The notes under the pieces were generated by a model, which searched no databases, was not told the DNA's origin, and saw nothing but the letters and a program-made list of their open reading frames with translations. Made by a program: the position numbers and the translations under genes. From positions 134,716-198,715 of the forward strand of contig CAZSJW010000001.1 in assembly GCA_964607285.1 (NCBI GenBank): a stretch of 64,000 nucleotides of DNA. The letters run 5' to 3'. Numbering within the stretch: the stretch's first letter is position 1; each line of letters begins with the position of its first letter. Below, piece by piece: positions 2,070 to 30,929 of this stretch. Origin of the DNA: an uncultured Pseudomonadales bacterium. GTDB lineage: Bacteria > Patescibacteriota > Microgenomatia > UBA1400 > PJMF01.

Positions 2070-3704
2070 ATGGTTTCGTGGCAACTACATTCAGATGTGA
2101 TTCCAGACTCAGTGGATGAGTTAGTGAAGGTGGTGCTGGCATCTCGTAATATCGAAAGTATATCTGAGTTTGTGCATCCACCCAGCCCACTAGACCTCAC
2201 CCCAAAGGCTGTTGGTATTTCCGAAAAACCTTTAGCAAAAGCCATCAGTCTAATCAAAAAAATCGGTGCAGCAGGTGGTGACATCTGTATAGTAGGCGAC
2301 TACGACGCAGATGGCATCTGTGCCACTGCCATTGCCTGGTCCGTGATGCACGTATTGGGGTACAAGGTTAGACCGTTTATTCCTAGTCGTGAGAAACATG
2401 GATATGGTCTAAATAGCAAAGTGCTAGCAGATGTTCTCGCTGACGGCAAGCCTGATCTTATTATTACCGTAGATAACGGAATTGTTGCACATGCGCCTGT
2501 CGCTGAGGTAAAGGCCTTGGGTATCAAAGTGATAGTGACAGACCACCATCAACCAGAGAATACTTTGCCAGAGGCAGATGCTATTGTGCATACAACAAAG
2601 CTCTGTGGTGCTACTGTGTCATGGATGTTGATGCAGGCACTAGCGCCTGAGTTGGTCGCACAGCAGCTTGAATTGGCAGGTATTGCCACAATAGCTGATC
2701 AGGTGCCTTTGGTTGGTGCCAATCGTCAGTTTGCGGTACATGGGGTGGCAGCGCTTCGCACTTCCCAGAGAGTGGGGTTACAGGCACTTTTTGAGCAAAT
2801 GGGCAGTGTCCAAGCAGAAGCGAATAGCCATACTGTTGGATATGGAATTGCCCCAAGAATTAACGCAATGGGTAGATTGGCGCATGGTATGGATGCGTTG
2901 CGATTGCTGTGTACTCGCAACAAACAGCGGGCATCCGAGTTGGCTCAGGTGTTAGGCAACACCAACACCAGTCGGCAGTCTCTAACTGAGGACTTGATGG
3001 ACAGTGCTCGCGTGCAGGCTAAAGCGCAGGCTGATCAGAGAATTTTGATTGTACTTTCTGCTGAGTTTCATGAAGGAGTTTTGGGATTGTTGGCAGGTAA
3101 ACTTACCGAGGAGTTCGGTAAGCCAACAGTTGCAATAAAAGTTGGCGAACATACTAGTAAAGGTTCAGCCAGAAGCATTTTGGGTATCAGTGTTGTAGAG
3201 TTACTACGGCTTGTTCGCTCGGAGCTTTTGGAAGTTGGTGGACATCCGATGGCAGCTGGATTCGGGTTGGAGAGTGGGAGGATGGTAGTATTTACGGAAA
3301 AATTGCATGCTCTTGCTTTGGAGAAAATATCAGTGGAACAGCTGGAGCCAAAGTTAGATATTGTTTGTGAGTTACCTCATTCGCTGCTGACACTGGAAGC
3401 CGCTAGTGCGATTGAAGCGCTGCAGCCATTTGGTCAGGGTAATCCCGAGCCAGTGTTTGCTATTAAGAATCTTAGGCTCATACATAGTAAAGTGATCGGG
3501 AAGGATGGACGCCATTTGAAGTTGCAGTTTGGGACTGATGATCCACTATATCCCAGTGTTGAGGCTGTGTGGTGGGGTGGGGCTGATGGTTGGAAATCTC
3601 AGTTAGGTGCGCAAATTCAGATTGCTGGATGTCTAGCAGTGGATAAGTGGAAACCAAATAGCCATAAAATTTCAATAGTCATTGCAGATGTGATAGCTAA
3701 CTAG
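2070..3704 (+). CDS. recJ: Single-stranded-DNA-specific exonuclease RecJ (DHH/DHHA1 phosphoesterase).
   Basis: 544 aa. It has the GDYDADG and VTDHHQP (DHH) motifs and C-terminal DHHA1/OB-like regions. Confidence 0.85.
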   Translation: MVSWQLHSDVIPDSVDELVKVVLASRNIESISEFVHPPSPLDLTPKAVGISEKPLAKAISLIKKIGAAGGDICIVGDYDADGICATAIAWSVMHVLGYKVRPFIPSREKHGYGLNSKVLADVLADGKPDLIITVDNGIVAHAPVAEVKALGIKVIVTDHHQPENTLPEADAIVHTTKLCGATVSWMLMQALAPELVAQQLELAGIATIADQVPLVGANRQFAVHGVAALRTSQRVGLQALFEQMGSVQAEANSHTVGYGIAPRINAMGRLAHGMDALRLLCTRNKQRASELAQVLGNTNTSRQSLTEDLMDSARVQAKAQADQRILIVLSAEFHEGVLGLLAGKLTEEFGKPTVAIKVGEHTSKGSARSILGISVVELLRLVRSELLEVGGHPMAAGFGLESGRMVVFTEKLHALALEKISVEQLEPKLDIVCELPHSLLTLEAASAIEALQPFGQGNPEPVFAIKNLRLIHSKVIGKDGRHLKLQFGTDDPLYPSVEAVWWGGADGWKSQLGAQIQIAGCLAVDKWKPNSHKISIVIADVIAN

Positions 3705-3742
3705 TCAGTTAACTGAAATGCTAGATAAATGGGAAGTCTAAT

Positions 3743-4975
3743 TTAGTTTTCAACTTCAGATAACGAAGAAATTCTAGGCATGATTCTACATTTAGGTTTA
3801 AAAACTTCGCTTCTTCTGCCAGTGTAGCTTGCATTACGCTCTTTGGAGAATGCAGAAATATACTTCTGTACCATCTCATCTTCCTCAATGAGGGCAAAAA
3901 TTCTTTGGAAGGGTAAAACTTCATCACCAGCAACTGTATACCTATCTGAGGACAAGTTGTATATTTTTGACAAAGCTATAATAACCTCAACAATCTTTTT
4001 TTCATCACCAGTAATCTCTTCACCTTCAGCAAACATTCCTTTTAATTTGGTTATAAGTCTGTACAACAGCTTGCTACTCTCAAAAGCGAGACGTTTCCTA
4101 GCTAAAGGGTCTTTTTTTATGTCATCTGGCATGCAGTTGCTCAGAATAGAAACGATATACTCATCAAGTTCATATCCTTCTTGATATGCAATATCGAAAC
4201 CCTCAAAAAGAGCAATTATGTATGTAAGTTCGTCTGTAAACTGAAACTCAATACTTCCAGATAAGAGTTTCCATGCCACATTTTTTTCTGCTGTCGATAG
4301 CAAACGACTTACATTTCGTGCCCAATCATCCCGATTATGAAATCGTTTTCTCAGTTCATATAGATCTATAAAATACCTTGTCTTAAACTCTCTGCACAAT
4401 ACATGCAACTTGGTTATTGCTTCAAAGTCATTAGTGTTCTCTTCACCTAACCAATGAACAGAGTTGAAATTCACTTCTTTAAAGTGCTCTAGCATCTTCT
4501 GTGATTTCAAAACTCTCCTGCGATGAAATTTTCTTGTAAACCAGTTTGAGCCAGCTAAATTAAGCTCATGCTTCATTAGGTTTTCAATTAATGTTGTATG
4601 TTGAGATAAAGTTTCAAGTGAAAACTTTTCGGACTTGAAAGGGTGTCGTTGTTCTGTGTGCTCTGACTGATTAGAAGTGTCACGCGATGTATCAATATTT
4701 TCTGTGTCGTCATAATCTGAAGCTGCAGCACTTGTGGCTTTAATTTCTGGAGCAGTTGGAGATAGGTTCATAAATAGCGTTTTACCTAGGGCAAGTGAGT
4801 CAATTAGATTTAAGAGGGATATAGCACTATCAAATGTGCTGGGCCTTTTTCCTAAATATGGGTGTGGAACGGTACCGTCTCCTGTAAGTGTTCTGCGAAC
4901 TGTAGAAATGAACACAGACCAACTTGAGCGTAAATCAACTGTCTCTGCGAAAATATCATCAAACATTGTTTGCAT
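3743..4975 (-). CDS. Hypothetical protein. This is the 410-aa ATG-initiated part of a longer reading frame that continues upstream to about 5475 but is interrupted there.
   Basis: Long intact ORF of mostly alpha-helical character with no motif I can assign. The same frame stays open upstream to an in-frame TGA at 5142-5144. Confidence 0.5.
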   Translation of the reverse strand: MQTMFDDIFAETVDLRSSWSVFISTVRRTLTGDGTVPHPYLGKRPSTFDSAISLLNLIDSLALGKTLFMNLSPTAPEIKATSAAASDYDDTENIDTSRDTSNQSEHTEQRHPFKSEKFSLETLSQHTTLIENLMKHELNLAGSNWFTRKFHRRRVLKSQKMLEHFKEVNFNSVHWLGEENTNDFEAITKLHVLCREFKTRYFIDLYELRKRFHNRDDWARNVSRLLSTAEKNVAWKLLSGSIEFQFTDELTYIIALFEGFDIAYQEGYELDEYIVSILSNCMPDDIKKDPLARKRLAFESSKLLYRLITKLKGMFAEGEEITGDEKKIVEVIIALSKIYNLSSDRYTVAGDEVLPFQRIFALIEEDEMVQKYISAFSKERNASYTGRRSEVFKPKCRIMPRISSLSEVEN

Positions 4976-5475
4976 TATTTTTAGAAACGTGGCTTCATAC
5001 CACTTTGTAGCGTTGATGCCATCTACATCTGTAAACTGGAAAGTATACTCACCAAACTTTACGACAATGTGATGTGGGACTACTCGATTATCTTCGAGGT
5101 GTGAATGGCTGGCTTTTTGTAATAAGTCATATCAGGTAGCTTGAGAGAGCAGTGCTCCGGCAAACTGAATTGCTGAACCAAGATTTATTAGTTCTCCCGT
5201 TTCTTGACCACTAACTATTTCCCGAAAAAACAACTGAAACCCCTGATCTGGGTTTGTTTGATCTTCAATTACAGCAAAGTTTTGTGTACCGACTCCACTA
5301 AAAAAATGTTTTTCATCAGCCTTATCGTTTTCGATTGCTCAAGTTCACCCAATGAATCATCATGCTGTGCTAATCTATCAAAACGTTTTGTTTGATCCGA
5401 CTTTGTTGTAGGTTCTCTAAACGATACATGGCTATTCTGTGCATTGAGTGCTGCCTCATTCAGTGTTGAGTGCAT
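4976..5475 (-). pseudogene. Disrupted 5' portion of the 3743-4975 gene. It carries a frameshift at an A7/T5 homopolymer near 5300-5314 and an in-frame TGA at 5142-5144.
   Basis: The 5475-5269 frame (MHSTLNEAAL...KNIF) reads coherently into a second frame at the poly-A run (..FSGVGTQNFAVIEDQTNPDQGFQLFFREIVSGQETGELINLGSAIQFAGALLSQAT). After a TGA it continues YDLLQKASHSHLEDNRVVPHHIVVKFGEYTFQFTDVDGINATKWYEATFLKIMQTMF, which is the 410-aa ORF. Confidence 0.4.
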
Positions 5476-5589
5476 AGTTGAAAATTGGCATCAATTTTTC
5501 TTAAAAAAAATATTTGTTGGTAAGTAACAATATACAATATTTTCACAAGTCGTGTGTACATTAAAAACTGTAGTACAATACTAGTATCA

Positions 5590-5820
5590 ACCCCACAGCT
5601 TGCCGACACCAAGCAATGTGTAGCGATGCACAGGGTTGTGTGCAAAGTATCTGCCTGAGGTAGACAAAAGCACACCGGGTAAGCCCGTAACCGCTGGAAT
5701 CAAGCCCCGCTTTGGCGGGGGCGAAAGAGGTGGCACCGCCGCTCCAAGTTATACTAAACTGGAAGGCCCTCTTGTGTATCAGTTACTGGTATGCAAGAGG
5801 GTTTTTCTTGTATATCAACA
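5590..5820 (+). promoter_or_regulatory. T-box riboswitch leader for aspS. A likely GAC (Asp) specifier is present, and the element ends in an intrinsic terminator.
   Basis: GAGGTGGCACCGCCG at 5737-5751 matches the T-box consensus AGGGUGGNACCGCG, with UGGC able to pair with NCCA and a G discriminator. Upstream, ...GGTAGACAAAAG... fits an Asp-codon specifier loop. Downstream there is a hairpin, CCCTCTTG (5767-5774) paired with CAAGAGGG (5804-5811), followed by TTTTTCTTG. Confidence 0.6.
5767..5820 (+). terminator. Rho-independent terminator hairpin plus T-tract. This is the terminator arm of the aspS T-box.
   Basis: An 8-bp GC-rich stem, ccctcttg...caagaggg, is followed by tttttcttg immediately upstream of the aspS ATG. 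Confidence 0.6.
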
Positions 5821-5833
5821 CCCGAAAGGCGCT

Positions 5834-7258
5834 ATGCAAACCGCATGCACCACACAAGAAGTACAGAGAACTATGGTTGTCAATTCCTTGGATCATGTTG
5901 GCGAGTCGATCAGGCTTGACGGCTGGGTTGGGAGTAAGCGCGACCATGGCAAGCTCACCTTTATTGATCTGCGCGATCGTACGGGTTCTGTACAATGCGT
6001 TGGGTTTCAGAAAATGGGAGAGCTCACTCCAGAGTCAGTTATCTCAATAGTAGGCAAAGTTAAACAACGCCCAGAGCGGATGGTGAATAAGGAGTCACTC
6101 ACGGGAACAGTCGAAGTAGACGTGGAAAGTTACACGGTACTCAATAAATCACGCGAATTACCAATCCCAATTGATGGTGATGGCTACGAAATCAACGAGG
6201 AGTCACGATTGCGGTATCGCTATCTTGACTTGCGTCGCGAGCGAATGCGCAATATTTTTAACCTGCGTTCCAAGTTTATCCAAGCGCTCAGAGTTGAGTT
6301 GTTTAAGGACGATTTTGTAGAAATCGAGACACCACTTTTGACTAAATCAACCAAAGAAGGTGCTCGGGACTTTATTGTACCTTCCCGCTTCAATCCCGGG
6401 AAGTTTTATGCGCTTCCACAGAGTCCACAACAGTACAAACAACTGCTTATGACCGCTGGTATGGAGCGTTACTTCCAGGTTGCCAAGTGTATTCGAGATG
6501 AGGACTTGCGTGCAGACCGTGGGTTTGAGTTTACCCAGTTGGACGTAGAGATGAGTTTTGTGACACAACAAGATGTGATGCAAACTATCGAGAGGACCGT
6601 AAAATCAGCTGTCAAAGCAGTTGGAGGCAAGTTGCAGCAGGAAGAGTTTCCTGTGTACACGTATGAAGAGGCCATTAAACAGTTCGGCGCCGATAAATTT
6701 GATTTACGGACAGATTCGGAGAAAAAAGAGGGTGTGCTAGCCTTTGCTTGGGTTGTTCGCTTCCCTTTCTTCAAAAAAGTTGACGTCAAAGACGCGGCTG
6801 AGGTAGAAGATGGCAAGAGTGGCTGGACGTTCACGCACAACCCATTCAGCGCACCACTGGAAGAACATCTGCAGTGGCACTTAGCTGGAGAACACCAAGG
6901 CGAAATTTTGACCAGTCAATATGATTTGGTCTGCAATGGCTTTGAGGCGGGCGGTGGCAGCATTAGAGCCCACAACCCCGAAGTGCTGAAAGCAACTTTC
7001 AAAATCATGGGTTACTCCGATGAGCAGATCCAAGAAAATGTCGGGCATATGCTCGAGGCATTTGAGGTTGGCACACCACCACATGGTGGCATTGCGTTGG
7101 GGTTGGATCGTTTGGTGATGCTGTTGGCTGGTGAAGAGTCACTGCGCGAAGTGATTGCATTTCCAATGTCGTCTAGTGGTCGGACTGCAGTGATGGATGC
7201 TCCGAGTGCGATTGGTCCGGCGTTGTTGAAGGAGTTGCGGCTATCTGTGACTAAGTGA
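5834..7258 (+). CDS. aspS: Aspartyl-tRNA synthetase.
   Basis: Motifs FIDLRDRTG, QSPQQYKQLLM, FQVAKCIRDEDLRADRGFEFTQLD and the class II motif 3 [14 protein letters not shown] are all present. The start is set at the ATG at 5834 (MQTACTTQEV...), downstream of the leader; the track's 5636 start lies inside the T-box. Confidence 0.9.
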   Translation: MQTACTTQEVQRTMVVNSLDHVGESIRLDGWVGSKRDHGKLTFIDLRDRTGSVQCVGFQKMGELTPESVISIVGKVKQRPERMVNKESLTGTVEVDVESYTVLNKSRELPIPIDGDGYEINEESRLRYRYLDLRRERMRNIFNLRSKFIQALRVELFKDDFVEIETPLLTKSTKEGARDFIVPSRFNPGKFYALPQSPQQYKQLLMTAGMERYFQVAKCIRDEDLRADRGFEFTQLDVEMSFVTQQDVMQTIERTVKSAVKAVGGKLQQEEFPVYTYEEAIKQFGADKFDLRTDSEKKEGVLAFAWVVRFPFFKKVDVKDAAEVEDGKSGWTFTHNPFSAPLEEHLQWHLAGEHQGEILTSQYDLVCNGFEAGGGSIRAHNPEVLKATFKIMGYSDEQIQENVGHMLEAFEVGTPPHGGIALGLDRLVMLLAGEESLREVIAFPMSSSGRTAVMDAPSAIGPALLKELRLSVTK

Positions 7259-30842: not shown

Positions 30843-30858
30843 TTAGCTACTGCACTGA

Positions 30859-30929
30859 TCCCGAACTAGGATTCGAACCTAGGATAACAGAGTCAGAATC
30901 TGTTGTGATGCCACTTCACTATTCGGGAA
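30859..30929 (-). tRNA. tRNA-Gln (anticodon CUG). The 3' CCA is not encoded.
   Basis: The minus-strand sequence TCCCGAATAGTGAAGTGGCATCACAACAGATTCTGACTCTGTTATCCTAGGTTCGAATCCTAGTTCGGGAT folds as a cloverleaf. The 7-bp acceptor stem is tcccgaa/ttcggga, the D arm is gtga/tcac, the anticodon loop is TTCTGAC and the T loop is TTCGAAT. The tRNA is followed by CAG rather than CCA. Confidence 0.8.

Follow-up and report, generated by a model that had tools for sequence, protein, structure and literature searches.

T-boxes fall into four classes, namely class I with a long Stem I and Stem II, class II of the glyQS type without Stem II, class III with an ultrashort Stem I, and class IV with a Stem I of intermediate length (PMC10482949). 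T-boxes acting on transcription generally need a long Stem I with a platform for the tRNA elbow, as argued on kinetic grounds, and an ultrashort Stem I is a trait of translational T-boxes, mostly in Actinobacteria (PMC7583486). The class III ileS T-boxes are those of Mycobacterium tuberculosis, M. smegmatis and Nocardia farcinica (Sherwood 2015; PDB 6UFG, 6UFM; as cited in PMC7583486 and PMC10482949). Class III T-boxes have been described for ileS only and in Actinobacteria only, where they act by Shine-Dalgarno (SD) sequestration. The window analyzed here is a 64-kb stretch of contig CAZSJW010000001.1, in which the aspartate–tRNA ligase gene aspS is preceded by a structured leader on the forward strand. 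As judged from sequence, this leader (about 5586–5809) is very probably a tRNA-Asp-sensing T-box that controls aspS by transcription attenuation (Table 1).

The leader is a member of the T-box superfamily that does not belong to RF00230 or class I and that departs from class III in its regulatory output. It resembles class III T-boxes in that a short Stem I displays the specifier in its apical loop, with a purine on its 3′ side, in that the elbow-binding distal platform (IDTM) is missing, in that Stem II is followed by a compact Stem IIA/B with an F-box (CCGUAA in the window and CCGUCA in N. farcinica), and in that an optional Stem III precedes a UGGNACC bulge between helices A1 and A2 of the antiterminator. 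In agreement with this, an actinobacterial-type ileS leader of high GC content (L109) was retrieved by the same sequence pattern as other relatives of the window leader. Unlike class III T-boxes, the window leader is predicted to sense tRNA-Asp, and its relatives tRNA-Ser and tRNA-Ile; it is found in Patescibacteria, has an intrinsic terminator at its end with the SD sequence left free, carries an extra hairpin after Stem I and has no clear canonical S-turn, and in many of its relatives only a 5-bp hairpin with a GGUNNNAA loop is left of Stem II. The class I T-boxes of the Bacillus subtilis tyrS type (RF00230) share with the window leader the terminator/antiterminator logic with the A1 3′ strand inside the terminator, the T-box sequence, Stem IIA/B, Stem III, the control of an aminoacyl-tRNA synthetase gene and a specifier ending in C. 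However, the window leader has no long Stem I, internal Specifier Loop, AG bulge or distal loop and gives no RF00230 score; the specifier is carried by a hairpin of only 17 nucleotides (nt; 5598–5614), and none of these class I elements occurs between the promoter and Stem II. The class II glyQS T-boxes are also compact and transcriptional but have a long Stem I that retains the elbow platform, and neither Stem II nor IIA/B (PMC10482949), whereas the window leader has a minimal Stem I and keeps IIA/B.

Table 1. Predicted elements of the aspS leader, in window coordinates.
Feature	Coordinates	Strand	Details
Candidate −10 promoter hexamer	5574–5579	+	TACAAT; read from sequence; would put the RNA 5′ end near 5586–5588
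Ultrashort Stem I	5598–5614	+	GCUUG/CAAGC (5598–5602/5610–5614); 7-nt apical Specifier loop CCGACAC, 5603–5609
Specifier GAC	5605–5607	+	apical loop of Stem I; 3′ purine A5608
Extra hairpin	5617–5632	+	UGUGU-AGCGAU-GCACA; from the fold; lineage-specific insertion between Stem I and Stem II
GUUG linker	5635–5638	+	conserved
Stem II	5639–5674	+	UGUGC 5639–5643 with GCACA 5670–5674; 26-nt apical part; from the R2 alignment
Stem IIA/B pseudoknot with F-box	5676–5699	+	CGG GUA AGC CCG UAACC GCU, 5676–5695
IIA		+	CGG 5676–5678 with CCG 5685–5687
IIB		+	AGC 5682–5684 with GCU 5693–5695
F-box	5685–5690	+	CCGUAA; as defined in PMC7583486
Conserved GGAA	5696–5699	+	
Stem III	5705–5720	+	CCCCGC/UUUG/GCGGGG; stem 5705–5710/5715–5720; from the folds
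Antiterminator (discriminator)	5725–5773	+	A1, 7-nt T-box bulge, A2, inner hairpin
A1		+	AAGAGG 5725–5730 with CCUCUU 5768–5773; 6 bp
A2		+	GCC 5738–5740 with GGC 5765–5767; 3 bp, plus inner hairpin
Intrinsic terminator	5761–5809	+	hairpin 5761–5807; loop UUA 5783–5785; U-tract UUUUUCUU 5802–5809
Regulated gene aspS	5825–7258	+	SD-like AAAGG 5825–5829; ATG 5834; stop 7256–7258

T-Box Motif, Antiterminator and Terminator

The leader is a GC-rich island (53–62% GC) within a region of 29–44% GC, and the fold of 5580–5835 beats those of all 200 shuffled sequences (z = −3.6). The T-box string GAGGTGGCACCGCCG lies at 5727–5741, with the bulge UGGCACC at 5731–5737. The motif RGGTGGNACCRC occurs once in the 64 kb, against 0.04 occurrences expected by chance, and this single copy is 100 nt upstream of aspS. 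The segments ccctcttg (5767–5774) and caagaggg (5794–5801) follow, and then the U-tract TTTTTCTT (5802–5809). The antiterminator is the minimum-energy fold of 5590–5775. The terminator hairpin has at least 20 base pairs and a free energy of −29.8 kcal/mol, and is listed as terminator-like by a consensus scan. The 3′ strands of A1 and A2 (5765–5773) fall inside the 5′ arm of the terminator (5761–5782). For 5700–5812, the terminator conformer reaches −43.2 kcal/mol versus −29.3 kcal/mol for the antiterminator conformer, a gap of about 14 kcal/mol. Since the terminator fold is more stable once its 3′ arm has been made, the default state would be OFF. The SD sequence and the ATG lie 18–27 nt past the hairpin and are unsequestered. 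Since the SD sequence is thus outside the terminator hairpin, the control is predicted to be transcriptional.

A preliminary description of the stretch had proposed a T-box leader with terminator/antiterminator architecture ahead of aspS. This is borne out at 5598–5809 by the mutually exclusive folds, and the exclusivity of the helices, which it had named as a check, is seen in the use of the terminator 5′ arm by A1. All the strings quoted there are present. However, the T-box sequence had been placed at 5737–5751, 10 nt downstream of its real position, and the distance between the T-box string and ccctcttg is 25 nt instead of 16 nt. The suggested fit of UGGC to a G73 discriminator agrees with the presence of C at the variable position of UGGN in every aspS leader of the comparative sets described below. 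The discriminator base of bacterial tRNA-Asp is G73, which the C of UGGC fits.

The sequence GGUGGCACC(G/A)C, given also as GGTGGCACC(G/A)C, is found upstream of aspS in 9 of 80 related Patescibacteria genome loci, where the motif lies 85–230 nt before the gene and N is always C. A scan of metagenome contigs for GGGTARGCCCR-N8-GGAA-N(8-38)-GGTGGNACCRC, a pattern that puts no constraint on Stem I, Stem II, the base that pairs with the discriminator or the gene downstream, yielded 32 loci, whose downstream genes were identified by NCBIfam for representatives and by N-terminal sequences for the rest. A canonical A1, 7-nt bulge and A2 with an overlapping terminator can be drawn in the window and in all nine related genome aspS leaders. 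A1 shows compensatory changes between leaders (AAGAGG/CCUCUU in the window, GUGAGG/CCUUAC in L021, GAAAGG/CCUUUC in L079, GGGG/CCCC in L010 and L016, and CAAGG/CCUUG in L008). Of 30 distinct short-Stem-I leaders, 23 have a terminator that draws on the A1 3′ strand and closes with five or more U; in four others a U-run accompanies a hairpin at another position, the L081 sequence is cut short, and only L107 and L109 have no U-run. In L086, L097, L102 and L084, the terminator 5′ arm seems to consist of the ACC of the T-box bulge and the A2 5′ strand (CCACGC...GCGUGG-U6). These terminators seem to reach fold exclusivity by a different route, in which the A1 3′ strand is not the main part.

The discriminator-pairing base varies outside the aspS leaders. 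The serS leaders are split between UGGU and UGGC, and six leaders with an AUC (Ile) specifier (L090, L092, L098, L104, L106 and L081) have UGGC and not UGGU. Since tRNA-Ile normally has A73, the C is unexpected there; the tRNA-Ile of these organisms may have G73, or a mismatch may be tolerated.

Stem I and the Specifier

In the MAFFT alignment, the window hairpin 5598–5614 falls on the GAC hairpins of other aspS leaders. When 19 homologous Stem I hairpins are aligned without gaps, all five base pairs show compensatory changes, and 94.7% of the cells are paired, versus 58% in shuffled alignments and 25–47% when the partner strand is slid. The third position of the specifier is an invariant C in these hairpins; a preference for C at this position of specifiers is known (PMC7583486). 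Across about 40 related leaders, the triplet in this loop changes with the regulated synthetase. The aspS leaders have the triplet GAC in the loops CCGACAC, CUGACAC, UUGACAA and GUGACG, the serS leaders have AGC in CUAGCCC, CUAGCAC and UUAGCCC, the nudix–serS operon has UCC in CAUCCAA and CUUCCAA (L084; L097), and the ileS leaders have AUC in CUAUCAA, UUAUCAC and CCAUCAA, as well as in UCAUCAG of the high-GC, actinobacterial-type leader L109. The window loop CCGACAC is nearly identical to the loop CUGACAC of L026 and L107. The specifier is therefore placed at 5605–5607, because the loop triplet tracks the gene, the hairpin covaries, MAFFT aligns the GAC hairpins with one another, and the GAC in Stem II is not conserved.

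The sole exception to the match between triplet and gene is L021, where AAC stands ahead of aspS. In this leader (2780–2900; aspS at 2965–4365), AAC (Asn) lies in the apical loop of GCCG-AUAACA-CGGC, and Stem II has a canonical S-turn. This suggests a non-discriminating AspRS under tRNA-Asn regulation. In L084 (5128–6984) and L097, a short-Stem-I T-box with a UCC (Ser) specifier stands ahead of a small open reading frame (ORF) of the Nudix family. The Nudix ORF is followed by serS in L084, and the L097 contig, which has the same nudix ORF, ends before any serS. The Nudix hydrolase would thus be co-regulated by tRNA-Ser charging.

Region between Stem I and the T-Box Sequence

In several other aspS leaders, Stem I and Stem II are likewise set apart by 15–45 nt of additional sequence, but these leaders lack the hairpin of the window. 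The Stem II helix covaries at five of five pairs in 29 relatives, and its apical part in the window holds GGTAGACAAAAG at 5659–5670. The GUAGA of this part resembles the S-turn strand AGUAGAA of ileS leaders, and the ileS relatives have a canonical S-turn, AAGAAC...AGUAGAAC. Many Asp and Ser relatives carry nothing but an 8-nt loop at this place. The site GGUAGACAA was considered as a specifier site and rejected; it aligns with the Stem II apical loop, in which GAC is not conserved. In L026, L095, L096, L100, L103, L108 and L112, Stem II is a 5-bp hairpin with the conserved 8-nt loop GGUNNNAA. These leaders, about 107–110 nt long, have a conserved RAGYUG linker on the 5′ side of Stem II and no S-turn internal loop. 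With Stem II cut to a 5-bp hairpin, such relatives would have neither an elbow platform nor a canonical S-turn.

In the IIA/B element, the outer IIA pair changes from C-G to U-A in 3 of the 29 relatives, and support for the IIB pair is weak (A-U in 4, G-C in 2, unpaired in 23). The same element is found in the valS T-box L105, which RF00230 recognizes, and in the ileS leader L109. Since the scan for the core pattern also retrieved two canonical valS leaders with a long Stem I, the IIA/B of the window is an ordinary T-box pseudoknot. An equivalent optional hairpin is present at the site of Stem III in L001, L081, L101 and L109. The window, L001, L003 and L026 have a common order of elements, in which a short hairpin with a GAC–purine loop, a GUUG linker and a second hairpin are followed by CGGGUAAGCCCG, 8 nt, GGAA, an optional hairpin, the T-box and the terminator.

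Covariance Models of the Related Leaders

Because MAFFT on full leaders split Stem I or pushed the A2 gaps to the end, the first covariance model, R1, was built from five gapless serS leaders only. Alignment A5 contains 29 leaders other than that of the window, realigned to R1, and the second model, R2, was built from A5. The E-values of both models are rough. R1 hits the window once, at 5615–5712 (E = 6e-4 in a 593-kb search), and R2 finds exactly one site in the window, at 5616–5773 (39.1 bits, E = 7.9e-8). In A5, whose fitting to the model biases pair counts towards structure, 93.3% of the cells are paired, versus 71.8% in shuffled alignments and 25–45% when the partners are slid; 16 of 23 pairs are changed on both sides, and on four of five measures the observed value is not reached by any shuffle. 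Two of the four A1 pairs covary and the other two are invariant, with 99% of the cells paired, and two of the three A2 pairs covary, with 95% paired.

R2 also added the locus L037 (2234–4854), whose bulge is a variant, UGGCACA. Its apical loop (AUGACA) contains GAC, and downstream of the T-box come a 170-aa ORF of asparaginase/GatD-like type and then an AspRS of unusual length (621 aa, with a C-terminal extension).

Proposed Mechanism

Sequence elements, alternative folds, covariation and the match of loop triplet and gene in relatives are seen in the data; regulation as such is inferred, as are the binding of tRNA and the parts played by Stem II and IIA/B, both taken from the actinobacterial ileS structures described in PMC7583486 and PMC10482949. 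The anticodon GUC of tRNA-Asp would pair with the GAC in the 7-nt apical loop of the ultrashort Stem I. As the distal platform for the tRNA elbow is absent, Stem II and IIA/B (5635–5699) may support the codon–anticodon helix, as in the actinobacterial ileS T-boxes. The 3′ end of uncharged tRNA (G73-C-C-A) would then pair with UGGC of the bulge (5731–5734) and stabilize the antiterminator with its A1 and A2 helices, thereby allowing RNA polymerase to read into aspS. With charged tRNA or no tRNA, the terminator with its U-tract would form from the 3′ strands of A1 and A2, and transcription would stop about 25 nt before the start codon.

Weighing of the Interpretation and Its Alternatives

Several points weigh against a tRNA-Asp-sensing T-box with an ultrashort Stem I, or against the strength of the numbers given for it. 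RF00230 (Rfam 15) scores no match at its gathering threshold anywhere in the window and none at E ≤ 10 on 5450–5900, so that the match proposed as a check in the preliminary description was not found; it also gives none in nine related aspS leaders, the only hits of the Rfam scans being weak chance matches to microRNAs. In a control of 12 loci, the one leader recovered by RF00230 was L105 (94.7 bits; threshold 93), a canonical valS leader with a long Stem I; L109 and every short leader were missed. Because the control also misses L109, the negative result means "not class I" and does not refute a T-box. In addition, AAAGUA and GUAGAC occur in the apical part of the window's Stem II, which shows no clean S-turn. 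R2 sets its Stem I on the second hairpin 5617–5632 and not on the GAC hairpin, which is treated as an artefact of the inserted hairpin, and the assignment of 5598–5614 as Stem I rests on MAFFT and on GAC conservation. The Stem I hairpins were chosen by the analyst among candidates, the metagenome set was preselected by fixed IIA/B and T-box sequences, and A5 carries the bias noted above. The anticodon and G73 of tRNA-Asp rest on general knowledge, because no cognate tRNA-Asp gene is present in the window or the loci; tRNA-Asp, tRNA-Ser and tRNA-Ile genes, sought for a check of the discriminator base, were found neither in the window nor in the 40 loci scanned. The lineage to which the T-box had been taken to point in the preliminary description (Firmicutes, Actinobacteria and a few others) has to be replaced, the organism belonging to Patescibacteria (Candidate Phyla Radiation, CPR).

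Two alternatives keep the T-box and move its specifier. The GAU at 5625–5627, in the AGCGAU loop of the second hairpin 5617–5632, is an Asp codon, and this hairpin directly precedes the GUUG–Stem II junction, the place that Stem I takes in the shortest relatives; R2 puts Stem I there, and the spacing to Stem II is that of short leaders. However, this loop is only 6 nt long, GAU occupies its 3′ edge without a following unpaired purine, and all 19 aligned specifier triplets end in C, matching the known C preference (PMC7583486). In several aspS leaders with additional sequence between Stem I and Stem II, the GAC hairpin still precedes that sequence, and CCGACAC is nearly identical to the CUGACAC of L026 and L107, making GAU very unlikely as the specifier. 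A canonical class I-like T-box would have the hairpin 5638–5675 as Stem I and GAC 5663–5665, within GGUAGACAAAAG, as an internal-loop specifier. A GAC followed by A is indeed present, and the internal loop of the hairpin has AGUA on its 5′ side; the preliminary description had likewise read the GAC of GGTAGACAAAAG as the specifier. This GAC lies in the Stem II region, where the aspS leaders L001, L003 and L026 read GGUAGCAA, GGUGAUAA and GGUUGUAA, without GAC, and keep GAC in the upstream apical loop. The serS and ileS leaders vary the upstream loop (AGC, AUC) and not the hairpin 5638–5675, the G and A of GAC 5663–5665 are paired in the minimum-energy fold, the AG bulge, distal loop and kink-turn are not seen (no specific kink-turn test was made), and RF00230 fails. 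A class I-like architecture is thus extremely unlikely.

Other alternatives concern the output. All described ultrashort-Stem-I T-boxes are translational (PMC7583486; PMC10482949), and L109 and possibly L107 have no U-tract, in line with a switch between sequestrator and anti-sequestrator like that of the actinobacterial ileS T-boxes. In the window, however, the hairpin 5761–5807 directly abuts UUUUUCUU and is scored as an intrinsic terminator, the SD-like AAAGG and the ATG at 5834 are unsequestered, and 23 of 30 relatives share the hairpin plus U-run, so that a translational switch is most improbable here. It is barely conceivable that there is no tRNA switch at all and that a structured 5′ untranslated region with a constitutive or protein-controlled attenuator, or the terminator of an upstream transcript, carries a fortuitous T-box string. 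RF00230 without a hit would fit this explanation, and a single 12-nt motif has a chance of about 4% of occurring somewhere in the window. On the other hand, the motif, the bulge geometry, IIA/B with the F-box and the triplet that follows the gene recur with covariation in about 40 leaders, independent covariance models match only the site of the aspS leader, and no convergent gene ends there, the nearest upstream gene (3743–4975) being on the opposite strand. The transcriptional tRNA-Asp-sensing T-box with its specifier at 5605–5607 is therefore preferred.

Implications for T-Box Diversity

A full-text literature search, incomplete in coverage, found no account of T-boxes in Patescibacteria/CPR, including Saccharibacteria and Parcubacteria, and T-box switches are probably previously undescribed in this group. 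In TBDB, use of the short-Stem-I model was restricted to Actinobacteria and to class I hits with a truncated Stem I (PMC7778990). Short-Stem-I T-boxes are thus unannotated because RF00230 misses them and the TBDB short model has this limited range. The chances are about even that Patescibacteria carry an undescribed T-box class, which would have no elbow platform, carry its specifier in an apical loop, measure about 105–180 nt from Stem I to the antiterminator, often lack the canonical S-turn of Stem II, act co-transcriptionally via an intrinsic terminator and control at least aspS, serS and ileS.

If this is true, the requirement of transcriptional T-boxes for a long Stem I for fast tRNA capture would be an incomplete view, the ultrashort Stem I would not be confined to the translational ileS leaders of Actinobacteria, and searches of the Rfam and TBDB type would overlook T-boxes of this short-Stem-I terminator type. 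The mechanism itself is familiar, but the combination and the host lineage bear on a generalization of the field and on database coverage. Leaders that join a class III decoding module to a transcription terminator would be natural counter-examples for testing the platform rule of PMC7583486. They would also offer a testable regulatory mechanism, feedback of tRNA charging on synthetase genes, for the CPR, whose members are uncultured, have reduced genomes and show almost no characterized regulation. The shortest relatives, of about 105–110 nt (e.g., L026 and L100), would rank among the smallest T-boxes in nature, and the smallest leaders may be attractive for structural work and for the engineering of tRNA sensors.

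The aspS Gene and Its Genomic Setting

The gene downstream of the leader matches the NCBIfam aspartate–tRNA ligase family with E = 3e-173, and its start at ATG 5834 was chosen by comparison of the N-terminus with homologues. The best relatives of the AspRS (up to 73% identity) come from metagenome-assembled genomes (MAGs) labelled Patescibacteria group, Dojkabacteria, Saccharibacteria and similar, and the window is therefore part of a CPR/Patescibacteria genome. Other MAGs with AspRS 60–71% identical (L004, L006, L007, L009, L011–L015, L025, L052 and others) are titled "uncultured Pseudomonadales" or "Gammaproteobacteria", and are probably mislabelled bins. The window AspRS (5834–7258) has only 474 aa and matches the 590-aa bacterial profile in two stretches, indicating that most of the bacterial insertion domain is lacking.

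The candidate −10 hexamer is not listed by the consensus scan, and the promoter is thus inferred; related leaders have TGnTAnAAT-like hexamers 20–35 nt upstream of Stem I. Between the divergent ORF 3743–4975 on the reverse strand, which encodes 410 aa and has no NCBIfam match, and the aspS leader, there is an AT-rich stretch of about 600 nt (4976–5573) with no convincing ORF and no Rfam match. The sole tRNA gene of the 64-kb window is that of tRNA-Gln(CUG) at 30857–30928 on the reverse strand. Among the related loci, the T-box-regulated IleRS of L085 (1736–5221), as well as that of L099, has 1162 aa and contains an insert at about aa 502–596 that matches families of the histidine-phosphatase/phosphoglycerate-mutase type.

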